From the IMG/VR virus record IMGVR_UViG_3300045988_039373, positions 22,795 to 86,794 of that record: a DNA stretch of 64,000 bases; one strand, 5' to 3'. Under the pieces are notes generated by a model. That model searched no databases. It saw only the letters and a program-made list of their open reading frames with translations, and had not been told where the DNA came from. Position numbers and translations under genes: made by a program. Each line of letters begins with the position of its first letter. Positions within the stretch are counted from its first letter, which is position 1. Positions 28,212 through 39,320 of the stretch are shown one piece after another. The stretch is from a virus.

Positions 28212-29159
28212 TTAAGCTTGGTCAGGGATAACTCTAAGTCCTTCATCTGCATTTGCCCAATTTACTTGGCCATCCCCTACTTGTATTTGAGCATCGACTA
28301 CTAGAGTGTATAAAATTCCAAAAAACCTACAGTCATAATGAACAGTACAGGTTAATTCATCAACACTGGTAGTTGCTGCTGCAGGATAATTCGTAAACCA
28401 TAGTTTCCAAGGAATGGGTTCTCCACTTGGATTTGGGATATTACCATTAACTGTTTCCCCAATCTTGGGTACTCTGAAGGGCCTAATAAACGTAGCTACC
28501 TCTTCCCCATTTATAGTGTACACTATGTAACCTCTAAAGGTAGCAGTCTTCACAGCAGGATTATTTGCTGCAGAGTGACCCAATCCTGCCACTGGCCTAA
28601 TTTCATAAGTAACTACTTTAACACTTGGAGATTGGGTTATATTAAGGGCTTTCTCAAATTTTTCGCTTTGAATTAGCTTAACTACTCCGGTTCTTTCGAT
28701 AGGGTCATAAGTACCTGACTGATACTCACTATTTCTTGATAGAGTTTTGATAATAGCTTTTCCTGGGTTATTACCTTCCCCTACTTCTTGAGTTACCTCT
28801 AACCAATCTACCGTAGTTTCGATTTTCCAATCTACTGCCCGATATTCATCCTGGGGTACATTGTTGAGGAACTTTTGTTGATAGCTATATACTTCTATCT
28901 CTAAAGTCTCACCTTTTTTAGTACCATCAAAGGTATGAGTAGTTACGTCTGGAGAAATACTCCAATAAGTATTCCAGGATTCTGCAGGAGTAGTATTGGC
29001 TTTCTGAACCAAGGTTACTTCTCTTTCTACGCCCTGTACTACTACCTTGAGAATCTGTTCTTTGATATTATCTCGGTCTTCATTTATTGCCTTCGGTTTT
29101 ACACGAATAGTGGCAGTACCTGTTCCGGATAATGCGGATATTTCAAAATCTGCTGCCAT
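28212..29159 (-). CDS. Virion protein with BACON/Ig-like modules
   Basis: Module ends REVTLVQKAN and ERTGVVKLIQSEKFEKALNITQSPS, and a W-containing start TVDWLEVTQ. This is BACON-like. Confidence 0.5.
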   Translation of the reverse strand: MAADFEISALSGTGTATIRVKPKAINEDRDNIKEQILKVVVQGVEREVTLVQKANTTPAESWNTYWSISPDVTTHTFDGTKKGETLEIEVYSYQQKFLNNVPQDEYRAVDWKIETTVDWLEVTQEVGEGNNPGKAIIKTLSRNSEYQSGTYDPIERTGVVKLIQSEKFEKALNITQSPSVKVVTYEIRPVAGLGHSAANNPAVKTATFRGYIVYTINGEEVATFIRPFRVPKIGETVNGNIPNPSGEPIPWKLWFTNYPAAATTSVDELTCTVHYDCRFFGILYTLVVDAQIQVGDGQVNWANADEGLRVIPDQA

Positions 29160-29716
29160 TATTTTACCCTCCTTATTTCTTTTCTGATTTCATTTCGTAT
29201 TTCCTTTTGTAAGGCCGCCTTTCCACCTGCAGCCTTAAATGCAGGACCCCAGAGAGGACGAGGTGGTAAGTTACCATCTCTACTACCATACTCGAGCATG
29301 ATAGCAATCTGATTCAAAGTTTTTCTAGAAGTCTTACCTGTGTAGGTAATCTTCCTGATTCCAATTGGTAATCCTACAAAAGTCCTCTTCTTACCTTTTA
29401 CTATGGTAACGGACTTTGCATATTGACCAGTAAGGTTTAGCATGGTATGTTCTCCATACTTCTTAATGGTACCCGGAGAATGGGGTGGCCAAGATACTCC
29501 AGAACCCTTTGGAGGCATACCCGTATTTAAACTACGCCTTACTATACGAAGAAGTTGATTGCCAAACTTCTCTGTACCTTTCGCATAGCCTTTTGTTAAG
29601 ATACTTGGGGTTTGAGCAATCAACCTTTCTGCACGAGCTTGTTCTCGTTTATCTACGTATATTTCTAGTGAACCAATTGGGGTCGATAGATTAATATTAA
29701 CCGACTTACTTGGCAT
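29159..29716 (-). CDS. HK97 gp10-like head-tail joining / tail completion protein
   Basis: The track start at 29752 is TTG, and an ATG lies at 29716. MLEYGSRDGNLPPRPLWGPAF matches the gp10-family signature. Confidence 0.6.
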   Translation of the reverse strand: MPSKSVNINLSTPIGSLEIYVDKREQARAERLIAQTPSILTKGYAKGTEKFGNQLLRIVRRSLNTGMPPKGSGVSWPPHSPGTIKKYGEHTMLNLTGQYAKSVTIVKGKKRTFVGLPIGIRKITYTGKTSRKTLNQIAIMLEYGSRDGNLPPRPLWGPAFKAAGGKAALQKEIRNEIRKEIRRVK

Positions 29717-29717
29717 G

Positions 29718-30239
29718 TTACTTGTCTTTAAATAATCCCAGCTCTTCAGCAATTTTCTCCAGGAGTGCTTCTGACCTATTCAATCTGACATCCACATTAC
29801 CCATATAGGCTTTAAATTCTTCGAACTCAGGAGCTGGTTTACCGGGTTCTTTGTAATTGATAGAGCCTAAGATTTTATCACATTCTGATACAATTGCCTC
29901 ATACCTTTCTCGGTTATTGAGGATATTCACGGCATTCTGTCTCTGATTAGAAACTTCACTGACAATGTTATCCAGGTTAGTGGTATAATAAATACCATTG
30001 TAAATACCTTCCTCTGCCTGAGATGGCAAATAGATTGTGATTTGTGATACTGAATCTTGTATCACAAGTTCAAGGCTATTTACAAACCCATCCTTAACCA
30101 TGGATGCCATGGGTTTACTTTCACCTACCTTCAAAATCCTTGCCTGGTCGAAGATAGGATAGAGAGCACGTCGGTCTCTTTCTAAGGAGAAGATTATATC
30201 CCCTTTCTGCAACTTTTGAAAAATCATTTTATCGTCCAT
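29718..30239 (-). CDS. Hypothetical head-tail connector-region protein (173 aa)
   Basis: ATG verified. Position only. Confidence 0.45.
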   Translation of the reverse strand: MDDKMIFQKLQKGDIIFSLERDRRALYPIFDQARILKVGESKPMASMVKDGFVNSLELVIQDSVSQITIYLPSQAEEGIYNGIYYTTNLDNIVSEVSNQRQNAVNILNNRERYEAIVSECDKILGSINYKEPGKPAPEFEEFKAYMGNVDVRLNRSEALLEKIAEELGLFKDK

Positions 30240-30240
30240 G

Positions 30241-30441
30241 TTACCTCTTATTTATTAAATTTAAACCAAATGAAACTGCACCTGGGTTCTTCTGCATGAA
30301 GTCTACCAGGTTTAAGAATTGATAGTATCCAAATTGATCTATGAGTACCTGAGCTTTGTTTGCTACTTCTTGTGCAATCTCTATGTTAGGAGCGGGTAAT
30401 GCCAATTGTATCTTAAATTCGGTGAGTTGTTCTTGTTCCAT
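30241..30441 (-). CDS. Hypothetical protein (66 aa)
   Basis: ATG verified. Packed in the operon. Confidence 0.45.
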   Translation of the reverse strand: MEQEQLTEFKIQLALPAPNIEIAQEVANKAQVLIDQFGYYQFLNLVDFMQKNPGAVSFGLNLINKR

Positions 30442-30470
30442 AATTCCTTAGTTATTGGGTTAAAACGAAA

Positions 30471-30501
30471 AAAGGAGTACACCGGTTAGATGCACTCCTT
30501 T
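30471..30501 (-). terminator. Intrinsic terminator inside the virion operon
   Basis: The minus strand reads AAAGGAGTGCA-tctaaccgg-TGTACTCCTTT followed by TTTCGTTTT. Confidence 0.7.
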
Positions 30502-30526
30502 TCAATCATCTTAGTTTTTGGCAAAT

Positions 30527-31144
30527 TTAAGCCGGTGTAGTAGTGGTACCTTTCAAGGCGGCAACTACCTGGCTAATGATGTTCTGGTCTCTTTGAGCAT
30601 CAACTACCCGGTTAAGGCGAGCAATCTCCTGGTCTTTGGCAGTGTTCTCGATGAGGCACTTGATTTCCTGTTGGCCATTCTTGAGGTCACAGCAGCAACG
30701 TTCCAACTGAAGAGCCAAGTCAGATTTTACTTCTTTAATCAAGCCTTTGGTTTCACAGCAGCAATCCGACTGTTGGTGTTCCATGTGGCAGAGACGATCC
30801 ATAACACGGTTGAAGCCTGCGCCCATTTGGTCACGAGAATCTCGGATATCCGAATTAGTTTTGTAACCCAAATCGCAAAGACCTCTTTCCGTAGTGAAAC
30901 GGTTGTTAAGGATTTCTCTACCAACACCGGCAACATCTTTTGCTACCCCACTGATTTCTTGAGTAACTCCACGAGCAGCATCAGAGATATCTTTGTAGAT
31001 ACCTGCCTTTGCTTCTTGAACCGTAGCTTCTACTTTCTGAATATCAGCTTTTGTGTCATTGATTTTGTCCCATACGGAAACTGCAGCAGCACCAAAGCCA
31101 CCACCTACCAATGCACCACCAACGGCTCCCCATCCAGAGCCCAA
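30527..31144 (-). CDS. Glycine-zipper membrane segment + coiled coil + paired CCC-motif protein, unknown function
   Basis: N-terminus GSGWGAVGGALVGGGFGAAAVSVW. Contains SDCCCETKG and ERCCCDLKNG. The only start in this frame is a TTG at 31144. An ATG at 31233 opens a 43-codon ORF that would need a -1 shift to join this frame. Confidence 0.5.
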   Translation of the reverse strand: MGSGWGAVGGALVGGGFGAAAVSVWDKINDTKADIQKVEATVQEAKAGIYKDISDAARGVTQEISGVAKDVAGVGREILNNRFTTERGLCDLGYKTNSDIRDSRDQMGAGFNRVMDRLCHMEHQQSDCCCETKGLIKEVKSDLALQLERCCCDLKNGQQEIKCLIENTAKDQEIARLNRVVDAQRDQNIISQVVAALKGTTTTPA

Positions 31145-31303
31145 CCGGAATGATCTCTATATCCGCAACCATCGTTACAGCCTCTGTCCGCGATTACAAC
31201 GCCATCGCCGGCACCTTTTACTTCTACTCCCATAATTGTAAGATTTTAAAGATTAATACTTAGGTTAATTATACATTAAATACAGAATGGTGTTGTATTT
31301 TTA

Positions 31304-33154
31304 TTACCCCAAATTAAATACGTATTCATAAGTAATTGTTGCAGCATTCTGAGTTATGTTGACTGTAAGCTCCCAACCCTCATCATCGTTTTCTGCTTGC
31401 CTTAATTTAATGGTACCTGACCTTGTTGATTCTACGGTGTTCTCCGTTAAGGTTAAGGTTAACCCATAGTTTCCATTATCACTGGATAGTGTTGTAATGG
31501 CTACATTTGTAACCCAACTTGGTTTTGAAGTTACGGTTAAAGCCAAGGGATATCTTGTACTTACCTCAGAACCATTTATTACCTTAGTCTTAAAAGAATA
31601 AGCTACATCAACTGTAAAGTTATTACCTCCCAAAGCTGACAATCCGGTTCTAGTGGTAGTTCTTGAACCAGTAGGGGAAGTGAATGCCAAGTAATACTTA
31701 TAAGATACTGAAGCAGCACTCTGTGTAACTGTGATTGTCTTAGTAGTTGCCCCACTATAGGATGCAGTTACTACACAGCTTCTACTTGAAGTACCCGAGT
31801 TCTCCGTAGCAGTAAGTACCGTCTTAGCAGCATTCAAACTAAAACCAGTACCACTTGCACTAACCGTAGGTGTAGCACTCTTCGAAGAACCTGCACTTGT
31901 TGACCCTGAACTCCAATGGTTGGTAGTAGGTATACTTACACTGGCATAAATATTAACACTACCTCCTGAATTAGAGATAGAGTATGAACTTGCAAATAAG
32001 CTTATTACTGGTGTACCATCAGTAGTACTGGTAATTTTATTCTCTGCCTGGTATACATCGAGAGTTATAGATTTCGATTTACCATTCAGAGATACAGTAC
32101 AAGTAAGGGAGCCTACCCTTGTTCTAGCCTTTGCAGTAGTTCCCAAAGAACCTGCACTAACTGCAGTACCATAACTAATGCTAGCACCGCTTGTAATTGT
32201 GCCTCCTCCAGTTGTAGAACCATTCCATCCCCAAGTCTGAGAATATGAGGGCATAGTTGAGAATGAACTTCTACTTCCTCCACTTGCAGGTATATCGGAT
32301 ACACTTCCTCCACTTACAGTGATTTCACTATAGGTTCTATAACCTGCAGATTGAGAACAACTGATAGTTAGTTTCTTATTGGTTTCTGCCTGAGTTAATA
32401 CTACACTACCCGACTTTGCCGAAGTAGAAGTATTATTTGCCATAGTTACTGAAGTACCAGTACCGGTAACTCCGGTATTAGCCCTGGTATAACTTAAGGG
32501 AATTTGATTACCATAGGTATGTCCATTTCGGTATTCCTGTTTATAAGAGGTTACAGTAAATGTTTTTGTTCCTCCAGTTGCCCCAAAAGACAGAGAAGTG
32601 GGATTCACTGAGAATGTTTGAGACCAACTTTGAGATGCTGCTGCCTGGGTAAATGTGAATTCCACGGTTTTACCAGATTCAGATTGAGTAGCCAACCCCT
32701 TACCAGACCTTGAGGTTAGGTCTAGATTCCCTGAAGCTTTCCAAGGCTTTCCATCTGCCGGCTTACTATAGTTAGTAATCCAACTTGGTTTACTGTTTAT
32801 TACGTAATTAACACTAACAGCAGACCCATTAGCTACATTATCCCAATATTTCTGCTTCGTACTGGTAAACTCAAAATCAAAATTAGAACTACTGGGGTTA
32901 CCTAAAGCATCAAAACTTATACTGGAGTATCTCAAAGTGAATGTATACTTATAAGTTACCTTATGAATATCTTCGAGTTTAACAGCTTCGTTATTACCAT
33001 AGGAACTAGCATTGGAGATTTCCAAGCCAACGTAACTTTCCCCCGTTCCTGTAGAGGCGAGTGCTAACAATTCAGCCTTGGTAGGGCAGTCATTACCTGT
33101 CTTACCAAGGCCTACTTTAGTTTTGACAGCACTCCATGTTGCTATCTCTCCCAT
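31304..33154 (-). CDS. Ser/Thr-rich multi-BACON/Ig-like domain virion protein (616 aa)
   Basis: Repeated module ends VEFTFTQAAAS, KLTISCSQSAG, KSITLDVYQAEN, KTITVTQSAAS, LTVNITQNAAT. Also KPSWITNY / KPSWVTNV and ...STRSGTIKLRQ. Confidence 0.6.
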   Translation of the reverse strand: MGEIATWSAVKTKVGLGKTGNDCPTKAELLALASTGTGESYVGLEISNASSYGNNEAVKLEDIHKVTYKYTFTLRYSSISFDALGNPSSSNFDFEFTSTKQKYWDNVANGSAVSVNYVINSKPSWITNYSKPADGKPWKASGNLDLTSRSGKGLATQSESGKTVEFTFTQAAASQSWSQTFSVNPTSLSFGATGGTKTFTVTSYKQEYRNGHTYGNQIPLSYTRANTGVTGTGTSVTMANNTSTSAKSGSVVLTQAETNKKLTISCSQSAGYRTYSEITVSGGSVSDIPASGGSRSSFSTMPSYSQTWGWNGSTTGGGTITSGASISYGTAVSAGSLGTTAKARTRVGSLTCTVSLNGKSKSITLDVYQAENKITSTTDGTPVISLFASSYSISNSGGSVNIYASVSIPTTNHWSSGSTSAGSSKSATPTVSASGTGFSLNAAKTVLTATENSGTSSRSCVVTASYSGATTKTITVTQSAASVSYKYYLAFTSPTGSRTTTRTGLSALGGNNFTVDVAYSFKTKVINGSEVSTRYPLALTVTSKPSWVTNVAITTLSSDNGNYGLTLTLTENTVESTRSGTIKLRQAENDDEGWELTVNITQNAATITYEYVFNLG

Positions 33155-33155
33155 A

Positions 33156-36100
33156 TTAATCTACATCTTTAAGATTTCTGAGTTCTGAGATTTCAGCCTT
33201 CAAAGCCTTAATCTCTTCGTAAAGAAGTTTAATACCTTCGATTGCCAGAGTAGACATCTTATGGTACTTAACTTGTTTTACCAATACATATTCTTCACCG
33301 TCGATAACAACCGTTTCGAATTCCTCAGGATTAGGAACTGAATCCTTAGTTCTTGGGTCTTCTTCCACATAATGGTTAAACCCTGCTGCTTCCAAACCTT
33401 GTGCAATGGTACCTTCATCTTCCTTACCATCCATGATAAAGGATTCTGTAGGTATACTGCAAATCTGTTCCAAAGTATGGGTTAATGGTTTGATGTTAGA
33501 TTTCAATCTTTCATCGGAAGACTCTTTCCAGAAACCGGAAGGAGCAGTAGTCTTAGCAAATACTACCTGGTCAGTAGTTGCCAATCCCAATTGAGCTCTA
33601 GTTACTGTATGAGGATTATCCTTTCTACCTGCATGACTATTGATAGAAGTCTGAGCAGTAGTACCTGCAGCCTTAGCATCAGCAATAGCAGTAGCTTGAG
33701 CAGTAGATACTGGCTTATCAGCATCAGAAGTATTATTAACATTACCCAATCCAACCTGAGTTTTAGTAACTGTATGAGGATTAGATTTATTGGCAATGTG
33801 ATTATTTACCTTAGTTTCTAAGGCAGTTACATCTGAACCAGTATCGGCAATCAAATCGTCAACGTAAGTTTTCAATTCTGTACGAAGAGCATTGATGGCA
33901 TTAGTTCTATTGGTAATCTCATTTGCCAACCCCTGTACGGTATTATCCAAGTTAGTCTTATCTGCTGCAGTCATTACACCTGCAGTAGTCTTAGTTGCTG
34001 CAAGTATATCTCTAATTAAATCTGTAGCACCTTCATAAGTCTTACCCTCTGCACTCTTAGTTTTATTATTAAGAGTAGCTCTTACATTAGTTGAATTATG
34101 GGTAAGAGTGAATCCAGTAAGAATAATTCCTGGAAGAGAACTATTAAAGGTATCATGAGCATTATCTTTTGCAATACGGGCCTCTTGTTCAGCTTCAATA
34201 GCATCTGGTAAGGTTTGATTAAGCTTTATTACACTATCGGCATCCATCAGACCAGCTTCTTGAGTAGTGGCTGGGGTTAGAGGGATTACCATCCCATCGG
34301 GTTTATCAATGTAATGCCCTTGACCATCCGTAGCAGAATAGTTACATAAGATAATAACATTACGCTTATTTTTGTTAGCTATTGAAACCTTACTAATTAA
34401 ATTTTTAGGCATGCTAGATACCACATCCTCAAGATGCTTACCTCTACTACCTTCGAAAGCAGTACCTGCGATTTCCCCAATGATAAGAGACGAAGTATTA
34501 CTGTCTACGAATTTAGTACCTGACCAACGGAATTGGTATGGAGGTTCACCATCGGCAACATTTATATAAATCTTACCAGATTCTCCAACTACGGGAGTTT
34601 GGTGACCTGCATCCGTATACAATTGAACATTAGTAAGACCTCCAGTGGGGCTTACATCATAGGTAGCATATACTTCAAGTACATCATCTACATATGAAGG
34701 CAAATGGTTAGCAGGTACTAACCCCTTCCCATCCAATGGAGCAAAGCCATCAGCCTTACCCTTAGTTGCTACAAAGGCATCATGTTTAGCTTCTAGAGTA
34801 TTAATATTATTCTGTAACTTAGTTTCAAGGGTAGTATCTGCCGCAGTTCTATCGGCAATCTCCTTATCAATCCTTGCACCCAATGCAGTATCAGCAGAAG
34901 TACGAGCAGTTGCTTCATCGTTTACAGCTTTAGTAAACTTGGTATCTAAAGCAGTATCTGCAGCTTTTCTATCAGCTACTTCTTGAGCAAGAGCGGCTTC
35001 TGATTTACCGTCCAAAGCTTCGATAGCATCTTTACGGTCCTGAACCTCTTGAGCAATAGCATTGGGTAATGTCTCATCCAGATTAACTTTATCTTGGGCG
35101 GTCATTACACCAGCTTTCTCTGTAGTAGCTGCTGGGATATAAGTAGTCTTATAATCTTCAGGCTCATGAGTATAAATACCCTCTTCTTTTTTAGAAGAGA
35201 AATTATGAGTTAAAGTAACATGACTGCTTTGTTGACCTACCTCAACTGGTTTATCACCAGATAAGATAATAATATTATCTGGTATAGAATCAAACAGCTT
35301 CTTATCTGCTGCAGTTTGTACACCAGCTTTCTCTGTAGTAGAGGCAGGCAATGTAATAGGATTCTGTTCTACTGTACCATCTTCAACTACGGTCTTAGTA
35401 GCAGCTATGCCAACAGTAGTTTCATTGGGAGTTACTGCACCAAGGGCAAAGTTAGCAGTAGAGATTCTATCCAATTCTACCTTATCTTTCGCAGTCATCG
35501 TACCAGCCTTAGTAGCCGATACCTGAGGCAAATCGAAAGTTTCGGTAGTATCAGCATTCAAACCGTTATCCTTAGTTACGGTTACTGTTACCTTATTAGC
35601 ATCAGAAGCTGCAGAGAGATCAGTTAAAGAATTTGGGTCTAACCCATCTAACTTAACCTTGTCTGCTGCAGACATAACTCCAGCAAGAGTTTGAGTTACC
35701 GGAAGTAAATTCTTGGTAGCTTCTACTTCTTCACCATATTGGTTATTTGCCTTATCCTTGGTTGAAGTCTTTACTTTGAAAGAAAGCTGAGTATCTGTTC
35801 GGGTTACAGTACTAACATCGGTAACCATGGTGTCTGGCAAAGCATCGGAAGTACCTTCTTCAGCTTCCAATCTTTCTTCATGGTCATCGGTAATGTTAGT
35901 GAATTTATTATCTAAGGCAGTATCAGCATCGGTTCTGTCCTGAATTTCTTTATCGATACGTTTACCCAAAGCTGTATCGGCAGCAATACGGGCAGCTTCT
36001 TCTGCATCGATGTTATCCTGGAGAACTTTATCTGCGGCCTTTCTTTCCTCTCTCTCTGTATTAAGGTCAGAAGTATTCTGATCAATCTTTGCTTCCAACC

Positions 36101-39100
36101 GAATATCTTCAGCTTTACGAGCAGCAATTTCGTTATTTAACAGATCCGTAATGGCCGTATAATTACCATTGATATTATCCTGAATACCCTGGATTAATTC
36201 CAGGTTACGTTGGATATTAGCAGTATTCTGAGTTACCAGAGCATTAGTAGCATTCAGGGAAGTTAACAACTCTGTACGAGTTTCACTTACAAAAGTTCTC
36301 AGCTCATTTACCGTAGTAGTAAGAGTATTACTCAGGTTAGTGAATGATTGTTGTAAAGTATTATCTCCCTGTTCTCGTAAGTTCTTTTCGGCTTCAAGCT
36401 TATTCTCCAACTCTGTAAGCTTAGCAGTCATAGTTGCTGCAAAGTTGGGGTCATCACCGAGAGCCTTAGCAATCTCTGCCAAAGTGTCCAATACTTCAGG
36501 GGCTGAACCAATAATCTTTTGGATTGCAGCCTCTACTTGTTCTGCATTCTGAAAGTCAGAATCGTTTAATAACTGAGAAACCTTAGTGATATAGTTTGCA
36601 TGTTCTTCGATGCCATCCAACTTGGCATACAGCAAGTCAGTGAAATCATTTGAAGAAAGTACCTTGCCATCTACCTTATCTACCTTCTTATCGTCCATTG
36701 CCTGGTCTGCAGCAATTCTATCTGCTTTCTCCTGAGCAACAGCATTACTGATAAGAGTATCTTGATTAGCTCTTTCAGTTGATTCTTTATCGATATTGGT
36801 TTGAAGTAAAGTATCTCCAGCTAAGCGGTCATTCTTTTCGGTAAGGATATCCTTATTAATACCAGCCATATCATCCTTGTGATTCTGAAGGTTGGTATCA
36901 ATCTTGGCCTCAAGAGAAGTCTCTTTGGCAATTGCTCGGTCTTTCTCTGCATTAATAGCAGTAGTGTTGGCATTTACCTTTGCTTTTAGTTCATTCATAG
37001 CATCGGTATTACCTGCCTCTAGAGAATCAATACGAACTCCCAAAGCATTATCACCAGCAATACGATTTTCCTTTTCTTGTTCAAGCTTAGTGTTAATATT
37101 ACCTACTTCGGATTCCAAAGCTTGTTTGGTATTATCCAACTTAGCAGTAAACTCAGTACTCAAAGCTTTATCAGCTGCAGTACGGTCTGCTACTTCTTTA
37201 TCTAAGTTAACCTGGAGAACTTGGTCGGCAGCCTTTCTTTCTACACTCTCAGTATTAAGGTCGATATTGAGAGTATCGATACGAGAACTCAAGGCACTAT
37301 CAGCATTAGTACGATCAATGATTTCTTCGTTAATCATATCCTTAACTTCCTTGTAGTTATCACCTACAGTCTTAGTTAAGTTTGTGATTGCCTCTGAATT
37401 TCTTTCAATACTATGTTGGTTAGTGGCAATAGCAGTAGTATTTGCATTTACCTGCTCAGTAAGCTCATTACGCAATGTATTGATAGACTCTTGCATACTC
37501 AATGCCAAGTCTGAAATACGTTGGTTAACGTTAGCCAGACTTTGAGTATAGGCTTCATCTGCAGTCTTTCTTTCGGCAATCTCTTTATCCAAGCTAGATT
37601 GAATTGCGGCATCTGCATCTTTACGGTCTTGGATTTCCTTGTTAAGATTGTCTTTTACAACTCCAAGAGCAGCATCACCAATAGCAGACTTATTGTCTAC
37701 ATATTCTTTCAGTTTAGTTTCAAGAGCTGTATCAGCATCCTTACGAGCTTGAACTTCAGCAGCTACCTCAGCACTGTTTGCCTCATCACCCGCAATTCGG
37801 TCTTCGATTTCTTGGTTAACCTGTTCTGTGATTGCAGCCAATTTCTTGGTAATGGTAGCAGCAAAGTTGGGGTCATTTCCAAGGGCATCAGCAATTTCCT
37901 TAAGAGTATCAAGTACTTCTGGAGCAGAACCAATAATCTTTTGGATAGCTGCATTTACCTCTTCCTCAGTTTGGAAACCAGAATCGTTGATAAGCTGAGA
38001 AAGATGCGTAATATAATTTGCCTTTTCCTCAATTCCATCAAGTTTAGCTTTGAGTATATCGGTAAAGTCATTCTTAGTCAAAGAATAGCCTTCACGTTTA
38101 TCTACTTTCTTAGTATCAAGATCTTTATCACCTTTTTCTCTAGCAGCAGCCTCGGCAGCAATAGCATTAAGCAATTGCTCCTTGTCTTCTACACCCTGCT
38201 CTTTTACATCTTCGATTTTGTGTTCAAGAACTAAATCCTGAGCAGCACGAGTAGTAGCCTCTGAATCGATATTGTTCTGTAATACTTGGTCTGCAACAGT
38301 ACGGGCCTGAACTTCTTTATCAATATTACCTTGAAGAGCATTATCTGCATTGGTACGGTCTGTTACCTCTTTAGAGATTTCATTGTGAAGAACTTGGTCC
38401 TCAGAATGACGGTCTACCTTCTCTTGGTCAATTTTACCTTGAAGAGCTAAAGTATCTGCCTGGCGATTAGTGATTTCTTCGTTAATCTTAGAATCCAGTA
38501 CAGTATCTGCGTTAGTACGATTTGCAGTTTCTTCTGCAATCTTTGACTCAAGGGATGCCTTATCATTGATATGGAGAGTTTTAAGGTCATTTACACTTTC
38601 CTTAATCTCATTATCGGCAGCAATACGTTCATCTTTTTCCTTTTGGATAAGATCCTTGAGTTCCTTCTCAAGTTCACCATTACCTTGATTTACCTTATCT
38701 TCAAGGTCTTTGATATCTTCAGCATTCTTATCTACCTTCTTCTCAACTCGGTCGATTTCAGCTTTTAAGTCTGCCTTAACGGTATCAATCTTCTTATTGA
38801 TTTGGTCTAACCCATATTCTAGGTTATCCTGAACTGCAGCTACTGCAGCACCCAGAGCAGCTTCGGCTTCCTTAGCACGATTAACCTCTTCGGTTAAAGC
38901 AGTACGAAGGTCGGTTAATTTATTAGTGATAGTAGTTGCAAAGTTGGGGTCATTGCCCAATGCTTCTGCCAACTCTTTAAGAGTATCAAGGGCATCATCA
39001 GCACCATCAACCAAATCACTAATCATCTGTTTAACTTCTTCCTCAGTTTGATATTTCAAATCATTCTCAAGCTGAGAAACTTTAGTGATATAATTTGCAT

Positions 39101-39320
39101 GTTCTTCGATGCCATCAAGTTTAGCCTTCAACTCATCGGTAAAATCATTTTTCGATAAGTCGTATCCTTCTTTCTTATCTACCTTATTCTTGATAGAAAG
39201 TACGAAGGCCCAGAACTCATTTATAGTTCCCCCAAAGCCAGCACGAACAAAGTCATCATAGTAACCCTGTAACAACCGCTGGTCAATCTCTTCGCAGGTG
39301 TAATATTTACTTACATACAT
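33156..39320 (-). CDS. Giant (2054 aa) coiled-coil fibre protein with a C-terminal S74-type intramolecular chaperone domain
   Basis: Three copies of a ~91-aa module containing LDTLKELAEALGNDPNFA (phage fibre repeat). Six copies of T-x-x-AGVMTAxDKxKLD. Contains NPHTVTKTQVGLGNVNNTSDADKPVS, and SSDERLKSNIKPL opens the S74 chaperone domain. Confidence 0.85.
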   Translation of the reverse strand: MYVSKYYTCEEIDQRLLQGYYDDFVRAGFGGTINEFWAFVLSIKNKVDKKEGYDLSKNDFTDELKAKLDGIEEHANYITKVSQLENDLKYQTEEEVKQMISDLVDGADDALDTLKELAEALGNDPNFATTITNKLTDLRTALTEEVNRAKEAEAALGAAVAAVQDNLEYGLDQINKKIDTVKADLKAEIDRVEKKVDKNAEDIKDLEDKVNQGNGELEKELKDLIQKEKDERIAADNEIKESVNDLKTLHINDKASLESKIAEETANRTNADTVLDSKINEEITNRQADTLALQGKIDQEKVDRHSEDQVLHNEISKEVTDRTNADNALQGNIDKEVQARTVADQVLQNNIDSEATTRAAQDLVLEHKIEDVKEQGVEDKEQLLNAIAAEAAAREKGDKDLDTKKVDKREGYSLTKNDFTDILKAKLDGIEEKANYITHLSQLINDSGFQTEEEVNAAIQKIIGSAPEVLDTLKEIADALGNDPNFAATITKKLAAITEQVNQEIEDRIAGDEANSAEVAAEVQARKDADTALETKLKEYVDNKSAIGDAALGVVKDNLNKEIQDRKDADAAIQSSLDKEIAERKTADEAYTQSLANVNQRISDLALSMQESINTLRNELTEQVNANTTAIATNQHSIERNSEAITNLTKTVGDNYKEVKDMINEEIIDRTNADSALSSRIDTLNIDLNTESVERKAADQVLQVNLDKEVADRTAADKALSTEFTAKLDNTKQALESEVGNINTKLEQEKENRIAGDNALGVRIDSLEAGNTDAMNELKAKVNANTTAINAEKDRAIAKETSLEAKIDTNLQNHKDDMAGINKDILTEKNDRLAGDTLLQTNIDKESTERANQDTLISNAVAQEKADRIAADQAMDDKKVDKVDGKVLSSNDFTDLLYAKLDGIEEHANYITKVSQLLNDSDFQNAEQVEAAIQKIIGSAPEVLDTLAEIAKALGDDPNFAATMTAKLTELENKLEAEKNLREQGDNTLQQSFTNLSNTLTTTVNELRTFVSETRTELLTSLNATNALVTQNTANIQRNLELIQGIQDNINGNYTAITDLLNNEIAARKAEDIRLEAKIDQNTSDLNTEREERKAADKVLQDNIDAEEAARIAADTALGKRIDKEIQDRTDADTALDNKFTNITDDHEERLEAEEGTSDALPDTMVTDVSTVTRTDTQLSFKVKTSTKDKANNQYGEEVEATKNLLPVTQTLAGVMSAADKVKLDGLDPNSLTDLSAASDANKVTVTVTKDNGLNADTTETFDLPQVSATKAGTMTAKDKVELDRISTANFALGAVTPNETTVGIAATKTVVEDGTVEQNPITLPASTTEKAGVQTAADKKLFDSIPDNIIILSGDKPVEVGQQSSHVTLTHNFSSKKEEGIYTHEPEDYKTTYIPAATTEKAGVMTAQDKVNLDETLPNAIAQEVQDRKDAIEALDGKSEAALAQEVADRKAADTALDTKFTKAVNDEATARTSADTALGARIDKEIADRTAADTTLETKLQNNINTLEAKHDAFVATKGKADGFAPLDGKGLVPANHLPSYVDDVLEVYATYDVSPTGGLTNVQLYTDAGHQTPVVGESGKIYINVADGEPPYQFRWSGTKFVDSNTSSLIIGEIAGTAFEGSRGKHLEDVVSSMPKNLISKVSIANKNKRNVIILCNYSATDGQGHYIDKPDGMVIPLTPATTQEAGLMDADSVIKLNQTLPDAIEAEQEARIAKDNAHDTFNSSLPGIILTGFTLTHNSTNVRATLNNKTKSAEGKTYEGATDLIRDILAATKTTAGVMTAADKTNLDNTVQGLANEITNRTNAINALRTELKTYVDDLIADTGSDVTALETKVNNHIANKSNPHTVTKTQVGLGNVNNTSDADKPVSTAQATAIADAKAAGTTAQTSINSHAGRKDNPHTVTRAQLGLATTDQVVFAKTTAPSGFWKESSDERLKSNIKPLTHTLEQICSIPTESFIMDGKEDEGTIAQGLEAAGFNHYVEEDPRTKDSVPNPEEFETVVIDGEEYVLVKQVKYHKMSTLAIEGIKLLYEEIKALKAEISELRNLKDVD
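33159..33534 (-). other. Peptidase_S74-like auto-cleaving chaperone domain of the fibre
   Basis: ESSDERLKSNIKPLTHTLEQICSIPTESF... The Ser-Asp-Glu-Arg-Leu-Lys start is encoded at 33511-33534. Confidence 0.7.
36414..36686 (-). repeat. Fibre internal repeat, copy 3 (offset 2499 nt from copy 1)
   Basis: KVDKVDGKVLSSNDFTDLLYAKLDGIEEHANYITKVSQL...LDTLAEIAKALGDDPNFAATMT. Confidence 0.8.
37836..38108 (-). repeat. Fibre internal repeat, copy 2 (offset 1077 nt from copy 1)
   Basis: KVDKREGYSLTKNDFTDILKAKLDGIEEKANYITHLSQL...LDTLKEIADALGNDPNFAATIT. Confidence 0.8.
38913..39185 (-). repeat. Fibre internal repeat, copy 1 (aa 46-136)
   Basis: KVDKKEGYDLSKNDFTDELKAKLDGIEEHANYITKVSQL...LDTLKELAEALGNDPNFATTIT. 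Confidence 0.8.

Follow-up and report, generated by a model that had tools for sequence, protein, structure and literature searches.

The window, a 64,000-nt stretch of phage DNA, carries one gene that is broken into two reading frames. We consider it very probable that this locus is a single late-transcribed accessory gene, and that the window holds an allele of a 235-aa gene from which one G has been deleted. The same assessment covers the fate of the gene among relatives: it is lost recurrently and mostly independently, it is dispensable, and its value depends on context.

The phage is a gut myovirus of about 86 kb that would belong, by description, to the candidate family 'Flandersviridae'. 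Members of this family have been described as phages of Bacteroidales hosts with genomes of 85 kb, a contractile sheath and BACON proteins (PMC8008677). Contigs related to the window are 85-87 kb long, and matches to sheath and BACON proteins are present.

One gene in two reading frames

The features of the locus are the following.

30527..31233, minus strand: whole gene, 707 nt, the frameshifted allele of a 708-nt gene of 235 codons (233-238 aa in relatives)
31105..31233, minus strand: ORF1, ATG at 31233, 42 aa, made of native residues 1-31 (MGVEVKGAGDGVVIADRGCNDGCGYRDHSGW) and 11 out-of-frame residues, then TAG at 31107-31105
30527..31144, minus strand: ORF2, first possible start TTG at 31144, 205 aa, native residues 32-235
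31140..31142, minus strand: GGG run, site of the 1-nt deletion, GGGG in relatives according to DNA alignments (Trp31-Gly32, TGG GGC)
31070..31141, minus strand: hydrophobic glycine-zipper segment GSGWGAVGGALVGGGFGAAAVSVW, Gly at each fourth position, five times (GxxxG x5)
30755..30763, minus strand: first CCC motif, SDCCCETKG
30689..30697, minus strand: second CCC motif, ERCCCDLKNG
30518..31153, plus strand: antisense ORF, 211 aa, co-extensive and in exact codon register with the sense gene
30469..30503, minus strand: intrinsic terminator, hairpin of 15 pairs, preceded by an A-tract and followed by a U-tract (UUUUUUCGUUUU)
30241..30441, minus strand: g66, second gene of a three-gene cassette, intact in the window
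29718..30239, minus strand: g173, third gene of the cassette, intact in the window

An earlier note on this DNA had drawn attention to the two ORFs, the Cys triplets, the glycine zipper, the TTG and the ATG, and all of them are found where it had placed them. ORF2, whose protein begins MGSGWGAVGGALVGGGFGAAAVSVW, lies in the -1 frame relative to ORF1 and overlaps it by 39 nt. The frames thus bear out the note's claim that the ORF opened by the ATG at 31233 overlaps the TTG ORF and that a -1 shift fuses the two. Upstream, the frame of ORF2 is closed by a TAG at 31159-31157, and hence the TTG at 31144 is the earliest start possible; a further TTG lies at 31111. We rejected the idea that TAG is recoded, as in some gut phages, and that ORF2 extends upstream in this way: there is a TAA at 31177-31175, a suppressor tRNA is missing, and the comparison with relatives shows a plain frameshift.

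A DNA alignment of the junction shows TGGGC in the window and TGGGGC in relatives. Three further differences flank this site, and none of them alters the protein read in the fused frame. Inserting one G yields an ORF of 235 aa, and exactly this repaired protein is recorded on two contigs. Among the best 120 of the 896 homologues found (96-100% identical), nearly all are 233-238 aa long, and those inspected read ...RDHSGW-GSGWGAVGG across the junction. ORF1 and ORF2 are two halves of one ATG-initiated gene of 235 aa. The indel that had been suspected near 31140-31150 is exactly there. What does not hold is the picture of a peculiar gene without an ATG, since the normal form, found in hundreds of near-identical relatives, is a plain ATG-initiated ORF of 235 aa.

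The earlier note had also raised the possibility that the indel is an assembly error. According to this explanation a homopolymer was miscalled, and the true phage has GGGG and a normal 235-aa gene. The lesion is indeed a 1-nt change in a run of Gs, most relatives have GGGG and the exact repaired protein exists. However, the exact frameshifted 42-aa product of ORF1 occurs on 558 contigs (920 index blocks) in four archives (NCBI, JGI, ENA and Logan). The assemblies that bear it come from at least three assemblers, SPAdes, MEGAHIT and Logan among them. The exact 205-aa product of ORF2 is found on 6 contigs, and the other lesions of the gene (nonsense mutations, start losses and large deletions) are not homopolymer errors. 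An error is therefore highly improbable; the GGG indel is a real natural allele. The same G run is shortened on two further haplotypes (L020 and L038), and siblings of one haplotype with three Gs (G3) and four Gs (G4) co-circulate.

No other 707-nt stretch of the window is as rich in G+C as the gene: its G+C content is 0.477, the highest value of 6330 such stretches, compared to a mean of 0.372 (sd 0.034). At the 60-nt scale 19 of the 20 positions with a G+C content of at least 0.6 lie inside the gene. The maximum of 0.63 at 31083 agrees with the roughly 60% noted before, and the local peak is accounted for by the glycine-zipper segment. Part of the high G+C content of the gene is due to its many Gly and Ala residues and to codon choices similar to those of the major capsid gene. 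Near-coextensive ORFs of more than 200 aa do exist on both strands, as had been observed: 205 aa on the minus strand and 211 aa on the plus strand. The antisense ORF is open because the sense gene contains no TTA, CTA or TCA codon. It is not a gene but a by-product of codon usage and should be ignored in annotation. The locus itself should be annotated as one frameshifted gene instead of a TTG-initiated gene plus a small Cys-rich ORF.

Recurrent loss and selection

How often is the gene broken in related phages? We selected loci through neighbouring genes, in one survey through g173 (29 evaluable loci) and in the other through g234 (70 evaluable IMG/VR genomes). Assembled contigs are the basis of both surveys, and most of them come from a single IMG/VR data set (3300045988). 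In the g173 survey the gene is fully intact in only 3 of 29 loci, and in 2 more it carries nothing but small in-frame deletions. In the g234 survey the gene is intact or nearly intact in 16 of 70 genomes and absent from 24. Point lesions (M1R, nonsense mutations and frameshifts) affect another 9, and partial deletions the remaining 21. The flanking genes at the same loci are intact almost without exception (g616 in 69/70, g185 in 76/76, g234 in 80/80), and so are the sheath (77/77) and tube (76/76) genes. Noisy IMG/VR contigs were rejected as the source of the lesions, since the neighbouring genes are intact in the same contigs.

In relatives, g616 and g185 are separated by anything between 26 and 1616 nt. 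Deletions end in direct repeats of 2-10 nt (microhomology). The two small genes after the split gene are affected as well: g66 is often deleted or fused, and about a third of the relatives have either a truncated g173 or none. The surveys show more than 40 independent lesions of the gene and these two genes. Because the gene is deleted or broken in most loci while its virion neighbours are intact, it is a dispensable accessory gene.

Large internal deletions keep the reading frame in 5 of 7 cases (P about 0.045). The C-terminal part might therefore retain some use, although an in-frame bias is partly expected because repeats that encode the same peptide share their codon phase.

A similar lesion is familiar from phage lambda. 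Hendrix and Duda reportedly found in 1992 that a 1-bp frameshift splits stf into orf401 and orf314 in laboratory lambda PaPa. In both cases a frameshift of a single base leaves a tailed phage with two ORFs in place of one dispensable late gene, and the split form, sequenced first, is widely propagated. The cases differ in that the lambda lesion arose under laboratory passage, whereas the lesions of the window gene are natural, numerous and independent. Furthermore, Stf is a fibre with a known role, while the product here is a predicted membrane protein.

Intact alleles have a pN/pS of 0.08 at a pS of 0.31 (31% of synonymous sites differ), a ratio that indicates strong purifying selection. The nearest cultured relatives of the cassette are found in Parabacteroides phages, at 56/49/29% identity for its three proteins; the latter two values refer to the 62-aa (g66) and 179-aa (g173) proteins of phage PD691P6. 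In this phage, which grows on P. distasonis DA691, the counterpart of the split gene is PD691P6_00037. A cassette shared at this distance and a pS of 0.31 mean that the gene was not recently acquired. No second lesion was found in ORF2 in any of the 12 G3 genomes examined, which argues for positive selection for loss and not for mere hypermutability.

Taken at face value, the value of the gene would depend on context: some lineages or situations would favour keeping it, and in others selection would act against it time and again. Tentatively, we propose that the three-gene cassette (CCC membrane protein, g66 and g173) may be under antagonistic selection in the human gut. Intact forms would be maintained over long times and loss would be reselected within hosts or individuals, with the GGGG run at codons 31-32 as the most-used, possibly reversible, off-switch. 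This proposal is possible, but we would not bet on it. Selected loss could have several causes; possibly a defence system that is widespread in Bacteroidales senses the protein, or the protein is costly in persistent infection.

Expression of the split allele

The G3 allele of the window is most likely a null allele or a strong hypomorph, and recoding does not seem to be involved. Programmed -1 ribosomal frameshifting or transcriptional slippage could in principle fuse ORF1 and ORF2 into the full-length protein: the 39-nt overlap has the -1 configuration, a -1 shift after Trp31 gives the exact native sequence, and ORF2 is intact in all G3 genomes examined. As a possible stimulatory structure, the 105 nt of G+C-rich sequence around the overlap fold to -33 kcal/mol in a single fold, a value made moot by the lack of a slippery site and of a conserved layout. 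Yet ORF1 contains no slippery heptamer of the form X XXY YYZ, and a -1 shift changes at least one of the first two bases of every codon in 31158-31108, so that P-site re-pairing is not available in the overlap either. The GGG run is too short for known transcriptional slippage. The two-ORF layout is not conserved, as relatives have a single ORF of 233-238 aa. Moreover, unambiguous null alleles of the gene are common, and hence no rescue mechanism need be invoked. We regard recoding as scarcely credible. The locus resembles the lambda G/GT tail assembly chaperones in having two overlapping ORFs in -1 configuration within a block of virion genes. It differs from them in lacking a slippery heptamer and a conserved layout, and in not being located between the tube and tape-measure genes.

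Alternatively, ORF2 could be translated from the TTG at 31144, or by reinitiation at the TTG at 31111, to give a membrane protein without the 30-residue Cys-containing N-terminus. The frameshift would then be a switch between two forms. All 12 G3 genomes examined have an open ORF2, the G3 allele is very successful and pN/pS among G3 genomes is 0.14. The TTG at 31111 ends two bases upstream of the ORF1 stop (TTGGTAG). The co-circulation of G3 and G4 siblings and the fact that the same G run was struck on three haplotypes would fit a switch, and the tendency of large internal deletions to keep frame would fit a modified function. However, TTG starts are rare, and the sequence upstream of the TTG at 31144 is G+C-rich coding sequence. 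Recombination with intact alleles confounds the low pN/pS of the G3 genomes, in which one and the same G3 5' segment is joined to 3' parts up to 59 synonymous changes apart. In many other alleles the anchor or even the entire gene is gone, and this suggests loss and not remodelling. An internal start is thus unlikely, although it deserves some weight, and we retain loss of function as the reading of the G3 allele.

Protein family, neighbourhood and possible function

The intact 235-aa product has a short acidic N-terminus that contains Cys, then a glycine-zipper anchor and a helix that is predicted to span about 175 residues; it also carries an invariant CCC motif. The glycine-zipper segment is presumed to anchor the protein in the membrane. 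In alignments of the wider family the first CCC motif provides the only invariant residues besides Met1, and the homologue from Parabacteroides phage does not conserve the second. In the DNA, the motifs are a direct repeat of 12 nt with copies 66 nt apart. AlphaFold models residues 54-230 as a single helix with low confidence (pLDDT 54; 55 for g173). Hence, of the claim that the CCC motifs stand in a coiled-coil context, the positions of the motifs hold, while the coiled coil is a prediction only.

Weak matches connect ORF2 to PHROGs 16490 (E = 1.1e-5), 9415 (E = 4.1e-5) and 5105 (E = 1.6e-4), and the 235-aa form to PHROG 9415 (E = 8.6e-4). Homologues found with phmmer match phrog_16490 at E-values of 1e-19 to 1e-50; for the PD691P6 homologue there is a match to phrog_9288 at 4.6e-6. 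The protein would therefore belong to the function-unknown PHROGs 16490, 9288 and 9415 transitively, not directly. Like their members it combines an N-terminal segment that is rich in Gly or hydrophobic with a long helical region and the invariant CCC. Its anchor is a pure glycine zipper, whereas distant relatives have a classical hydrophobic helix at this position. Compared to the Clostridium-type members, it lacks a Cys-rich C-terminal tail. In Clostridium perfringens phage XP41-N3 the PHROG 16490 relatives are part of the early/accessory region, and a crAss-like phage has them at yet another position.

Further searches added little. Pfam, NCBIfam, PADLOC and PDB returned only sub-threshold noise for the protein, its relatives and the family profile (ApoLp-III, XaxA, ZorA and HA2). 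Gly-zipper_Omp, Gly-zipper_YMGG and Rick_17kDa_Anti of Pfam gave no match at E-values up to 0.1. A megablast of positions 29000-34000 against GenBank phages gave no match, and the best 120 matches of a profile search for distant homologues were close relatives only. Two apparent distant homologues, P0168 and P0203, were rejected as poly-G sequencing artefacts. A single-protein scan of 185,579 GTDB genomes found no copy except on one mis-binned contig. A literature search for the Parabacteroides phage isolates gave nothing.

The split gene is located between two blocks of virion genes. On one side are the head genes (TerL, portal, protease and MCP, along with two large BACON/Ig-like proteins) and on the other side the neck and tail genes (tail-completion/Neck1, sheath, tube and tape measure). 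The strong terminator reported earlier is there: its hairpin starts 23 nt past the stop codon and folds to -26.3 kcal/mol (z = -6.8; none of 200 shuffled sequences folds equally well). Relatives retain this hairpin and differ only in the loop and at one stem position, and phage PD691P6 has a different GC-rich hairpin at the same position. The 70-nt spacer upstream of the gene gave no hit in a scan for sigma-70 promoters, a type that does not include those of Bacteroidota.

Morons in late operons have many of these properties. Examples are lom and bor of lambda, and gp15 of HK97, a superinfection-exclusion membrane protein. The gene shares with morons a deviant composition, its own terminator, presence or absence among collinear relatives, a predicted membrane protein as product and a position in the virion block. 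The proposal of a recently acquired moron is thus half right: G+C content, terminator and presence/absence are moron-like, but the distance to the homologues in cultured Parabacteroides phages speaks against recent acquisition. In contrast to morons, the gene is old in its lineage and part of a conserved three-gene cassette. There is also no sign of lysogeny in the phage of the window (PMC8008677; GTDB scan), so expression from a prophage does not apply.

What, then, does the protein do? It would most likely act at the host cell envelope during infection (for example in exclusion, or in the modulation of the envelope or of lysis timing) and not as a part of the virion. The earlier note had suggested an ejection or pore protein, or a virion component bonded by metal or disulfides. 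The position in the late virion block, the codon usage resembling that of the major capsid gene, and the hydrophobic glycine zipper followed by a long helix would all suit a virion protein. Neither version survives as an essential function, however, since, of 70 genomes that are otherwise intact, 24 lack the gene and 30 carry it in broken form, with its virion neighbours in place. In addition, the Clostridium-phage homologues lie outside structural modules. We give an essential virion-borne ejection or pore protein, or a structural component of this kind, very little chance.

An inner-membrane spanin similar to Rz, or another lysis component, is to be considered too. The protein shares with Rz an N-terminal anchor, a long helical domain and cysteines, which is the architecture of an i-spanin, and in the crAss-like phage cr116_1 and in PD691P6 a homologue lies within a few genes of lysis genes. 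A spanin of the Rz type has an outer-membrane lipoprotein partner, but none is embedded in or adjacent to the window gene: the embedded ORFs (including one of 65 aa) have neither lipobox nor Cys, and the next gene (66 aa) has neither signal sequence nor Cys. Homologues also occur in phages of Clostridium perfringens, about 4 kb from holin and amidase genes. This host is Gram-positive, and its phages need no spanin. A role as spanin or lysis component is very unlikely.

The pattern of loss matters beyond this locus. In a very prevalent group of human gut phages, independent events have destroyed a strongly conserved gene in most of the genomes sampled and have left the virion genes next to it untouched. 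Genes that are conserved and yet destroyed in this manner are typical of the interface between phage and host: immune triggers, exclusion genes and costly accessory functions. The loss pattern hence singles out the function-unknown family of PHROGs 16490, 9288 and 9415 in phages of gut Bacteroidales and Clostridium. If antagonistic selection does act on the cassette, then the lesions would be a natural knock-out series leading to a new phage-host conflict gene in a highly prevalent human gut phage. The same cassette is present in a cultured Parabacteroides phage, which makes the family accessible to experiment.

One gene split by a one-base deletion

The locus lies downstream of genes for TerL, portal, protease and major head protein, followed by proteins of 2054 aa and 616 aa. 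On its other side follow a tail-completion/Neck1-like protein, sheath, tube and tape measure.

Features of the locus in the window
31233-31105, minus strand: ORF1, ATG 31233, 42 codons, stop TAG 31107-31105
31144-30527, minus strand: ORF2, TTG 31144, 205 codons, -1 frame relative to ORF1
30755-30763, minus strand: first CCC, within the ORF2 product
30689-30697, minus strand: second CCC, within the ORF2 product
30518-31153, plus strand: antisense ORF, 211 codons
30503-30469, minus strand: hairpin and U-tract (terminator), 15 pairs, -26.3 kcal/mol, z = -6.8 against shuffles

Checks of ORFs, motifs, G+C, hairpin and neighbours recovered every sequence feature that the earlier note had described. 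The 205-aa ORF2 product begins with GSGWGAVGGALVGGGFGAAAVSVW, with Gly at every fourth position, five times; upstream, a TAG (31159-31157) closes its frame. The hairpin (30469-30503) is bordered by an A-tract and, at its other end, a T-tract. It could stop transcription from both directions.

A search of 5.8 billion proteins returned 896 homologues. Nearly all of the best 120 of these (96-100% identical to the 205-aa ORF) are 233-238 aa long. The homologues that we inspected start with MGVEVKGAGDGVVIADRGCNDGCGYRDHSGW and continue directly with GSGWGAVGG, which is ORF1 residues 1-31 joined to ORF2 in one reading frame. Hence the gene is not peculiar for lacking an ATG, as had been supposed. At the junction, relatives read CAT TCA GGA TGG GGC TCT GGT and the window reads CAT TCC GGT TGG-GC TCT GGA. 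The earlier note had suggested looking for an indel around 31140-31150, and there is one: compared to relatives, the GGGG run is short by one G (31142-31140). None of the three substitutions beside the missing G alters an amino acid in the fused frame. Adding one G yields a 235-aa ORF, and the identical protein is recorded on two contigs. ORF1 and ORF2 are the two parts of a single gene that has lost one base.

Assembly error does not cause the split, since the exact 42-aa ORF1 product is found on 558 contigs (920 index blocks) from unrelated samples, across archives (NCBI, JGI, ENA, Logan) and assemblies (SPAdes, MEGAHIT, Logan). The exact 205-aa ORF2 product is found on six contigs. Programmed recoding would need a layout and a signal that we do not see: relatives do not keep the two ORFs, ORF1 contains no X XXY YYZ heptamer, and P-site tRNA re-pairing in the -1 frame is possible at no codon of the ORF1/ORF2 overlap. 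For transcriptional slippage the GGG run is too short. Because records of the ORF1 product are many and recoding signals are absent, the window allele is a genuine frameshift in wide circulation.

Natural inactivation of the gene

Other short or odd members of the protein cluster carry further, different lesions within the first 45 codons, all of them in short-read assemblies. They comprise a nonsense mutation at Trp31 (TGG to TAG), insertions or tandem duplications of +2, +4/5, 11 and 16/17 nt, and, on a third haplotype, the same deletion in the G run. To avoid ascertainment bias, loci were also fetched via the neighbouring genes g173 or g234. The g173 survey covered 12 ENA/JGI and 19 IMG/VR loci (29 evaluable). 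Of these 29, 3 had a fully intact gene and 2 more carried only small in-frame deletions; neighbouring genes were intact almost always. The g234 survey covered 80 IMG/VR loci, 70 of them evaluable.

State of the gene and its neighbours in the g234 survey
Intact or nearly intact: 16/70 loci
Point lesions (M1R start loss; nonsense at codons 6, 31, 35; frameshifts): 9/70 loci
Partial deletions: 21/70 loci
No trace of the gene: 24/70 loci
Neighbours intact: g616 69/70, g185 76/76, g234 80/80, sheath 77/77, tube 76/76, g252 76/76

In these loci the distance from the g616 stop to the g185 start takes almost every value within 26-1616 nt. Thus deletions are tolerated across a unit of three genes, those for the CCC protein, g66 and g173. 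Lesions in g66 or g173 also occur with the first gene intact (loci L094, L095, L105, L119, L123, L125). Deletion ends sit in direct repeats of 2-10 nt, and direct repeats in the window correspond to alleles observed in relatives. The CCC protein gene is a hot spot for inactivation in nature: dozens of different, independent lesions disable it in most of the genomes sampled.

Intact alleles differ at 31% of synonymous and 2.5% of non-synonymous sites (pN/pS 0.08), and therefore the protein has been kept by selection over long times. The 5' segment of the window-type allele (G3, GGG run) is joined to 3' parts up to 59 synonymous changes apart, and the window's exact haplotype circulates in both a G3 and a full-length (G4, GGGG run) version. 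Hence there must be frequent recombination or recurrent mutation of the G run, which is shortened on three haplotypes. ORF2 carried no further lesion in any of 12 G3 genomes, although lesions were present in well over half of the others. We infer that selection against the full-length protein drives the lesions, not hypermutability alone. The C-terminal part may matter, as is weakly hinted; the frame is preserved in five of seven large internal deletions (P about 0.045).

Composition, relatives and host phage

No other 707-nt stretch of the window is as G+C-rich as the gene (0.477 versus a mean of 0.372, sd 0.034), which also holds 19 of the 20 positions at which 60-nt windows reach 0.6. Gly/Ala codons and third-position usage account for this (GC3 0.415 versus 0.327, sd 0.044). 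A recently acquired moron had been one of the proposals for the island. Its high G+C is real, but third-position usage resembles that of the major head gene (GC3 0.445) and does not point to a recent foreign origin. Likewise, the co-extensive antisense ORF exists but is a by-product. It is in exact codon register with the sense gene, so its stops would be sense TTA, CTA and TCA, which the gene lacks (chance 6e-5 under average and about 0.04 under capsid-like codon usage).

Searches of Pfam, NCBIfam, PADLOC and PDB found no relative of the CCC protein. AlphaFold predicts, at low confidence, a single helix (residues 54-230) preceded by a disordered N-terminus. An exhaustive phmmer search gave few distant homologues (23-42% identity), which share a hydrophobic/Gly-rich N-terminal segment, a long helical region and an absolutely conserved CCC. 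They match PHROG 16490 (function unknown) strongly, and a Parabacteroides homologue matches PHROG 9288; the window protein matches PHROG 16490, 9415 and 5105 weakly. Family members occur in Clostridium perfringens phages, in lemur and rodent gut phages and in a crAss-like phage (annotated 'spike protein/glycoprotein'). The member in C. perfringens phage XP41-N3 sits among early/accessory genes, adjoining an antirepressor and Gam/Erf, ~4 kb from holin/amidase genes. The nearest cultured relatives, Parabacteroides distasonis phages PD691P6, PD482P1 and PD691P3, have the whole cassette (56, 49, 29% identity) and the hairpin after its first gene; the next gene is not shared. Database proteins P0168 and P0203 are not distant homologues: they are the same protein with nearly all changes towards G (A to G, I to M, D to E, Q to E, T to S/R), and resemble poly-G artefacts that arise in reads from two-colour sequencing chemistry and were then assembled and translated into public data.

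The g66 and g173 genes (29718-30441), separate in the window and PD691P6, are fused into a single 233-244-aa ORF in very many relatives (e.g. L119, L125, L131). P0163 is a database protein in which a g66-like N-terminus runs into the C-terminal half of the CCC protein, which implies that the cassette was rearranged or duplicated in some relative. For the 315-aa gene (28212-29159), residues 1-282 alone match in 59 of 80 related IMG/VR loci; hence the last ~33 residues exist as two alternative alleles. The Neck1-like ORF (29159-29752) has 197 aa from a TTG overlapping the end of g173, and its true start is probably an internal codon because relatives are called at 185-191 aa.

The related contigs, from human gut metagenomes, measure 85-87 kb and encode sheath and BACON proteins. 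By description we infer the candidate family 'Flandersviridae', reported to be detected as often as crAss-like phages and to be possibly obligately lytic (PMC8008677). In Flandersviridae-like myoviruses, BACON and Ig-like proteins were recently described as epithelial adhesins (PMC13370021). Directly upstream lie the 616-aa and 2054-aa genes (31304-39320); the 616-aa protein has sub-threshold BACON matches, and in a related locus the 2054/2082-aa protein has a faint Peptidase_S74 match. No prophage copy was found in 185,579 GTDB species genomes. The sole match there, a 4.9-kb low-coverage phage contig in a Collinsella MAG (USJQ01000103.1, 'uncultured Collinsella sp.', L156), is most likely mis-binned.

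A possible role at the cell envelope

Variable genomic position, occurrence in phages of Gram-positive hosts and dispensability argue against a spanin or holin, and also against an essential virion or ejection protein; an ejection or virion protein was among the earlier proposals. These three observations suit an accessory role for the CCC protein at the cell envelope. Exclusion or modulation of envelope/lysis timing ranks first among candidate functions, as a tentative possibility of rather low probability. The oddities that drew attention to the locus come down to an ordinary event, a one-base homopolymer deletion in a gene that the phage can do without. The population pattern is the part worth following up, since it concerns a conserved, predicted membrane protein in a gut phage of very high prevalence.
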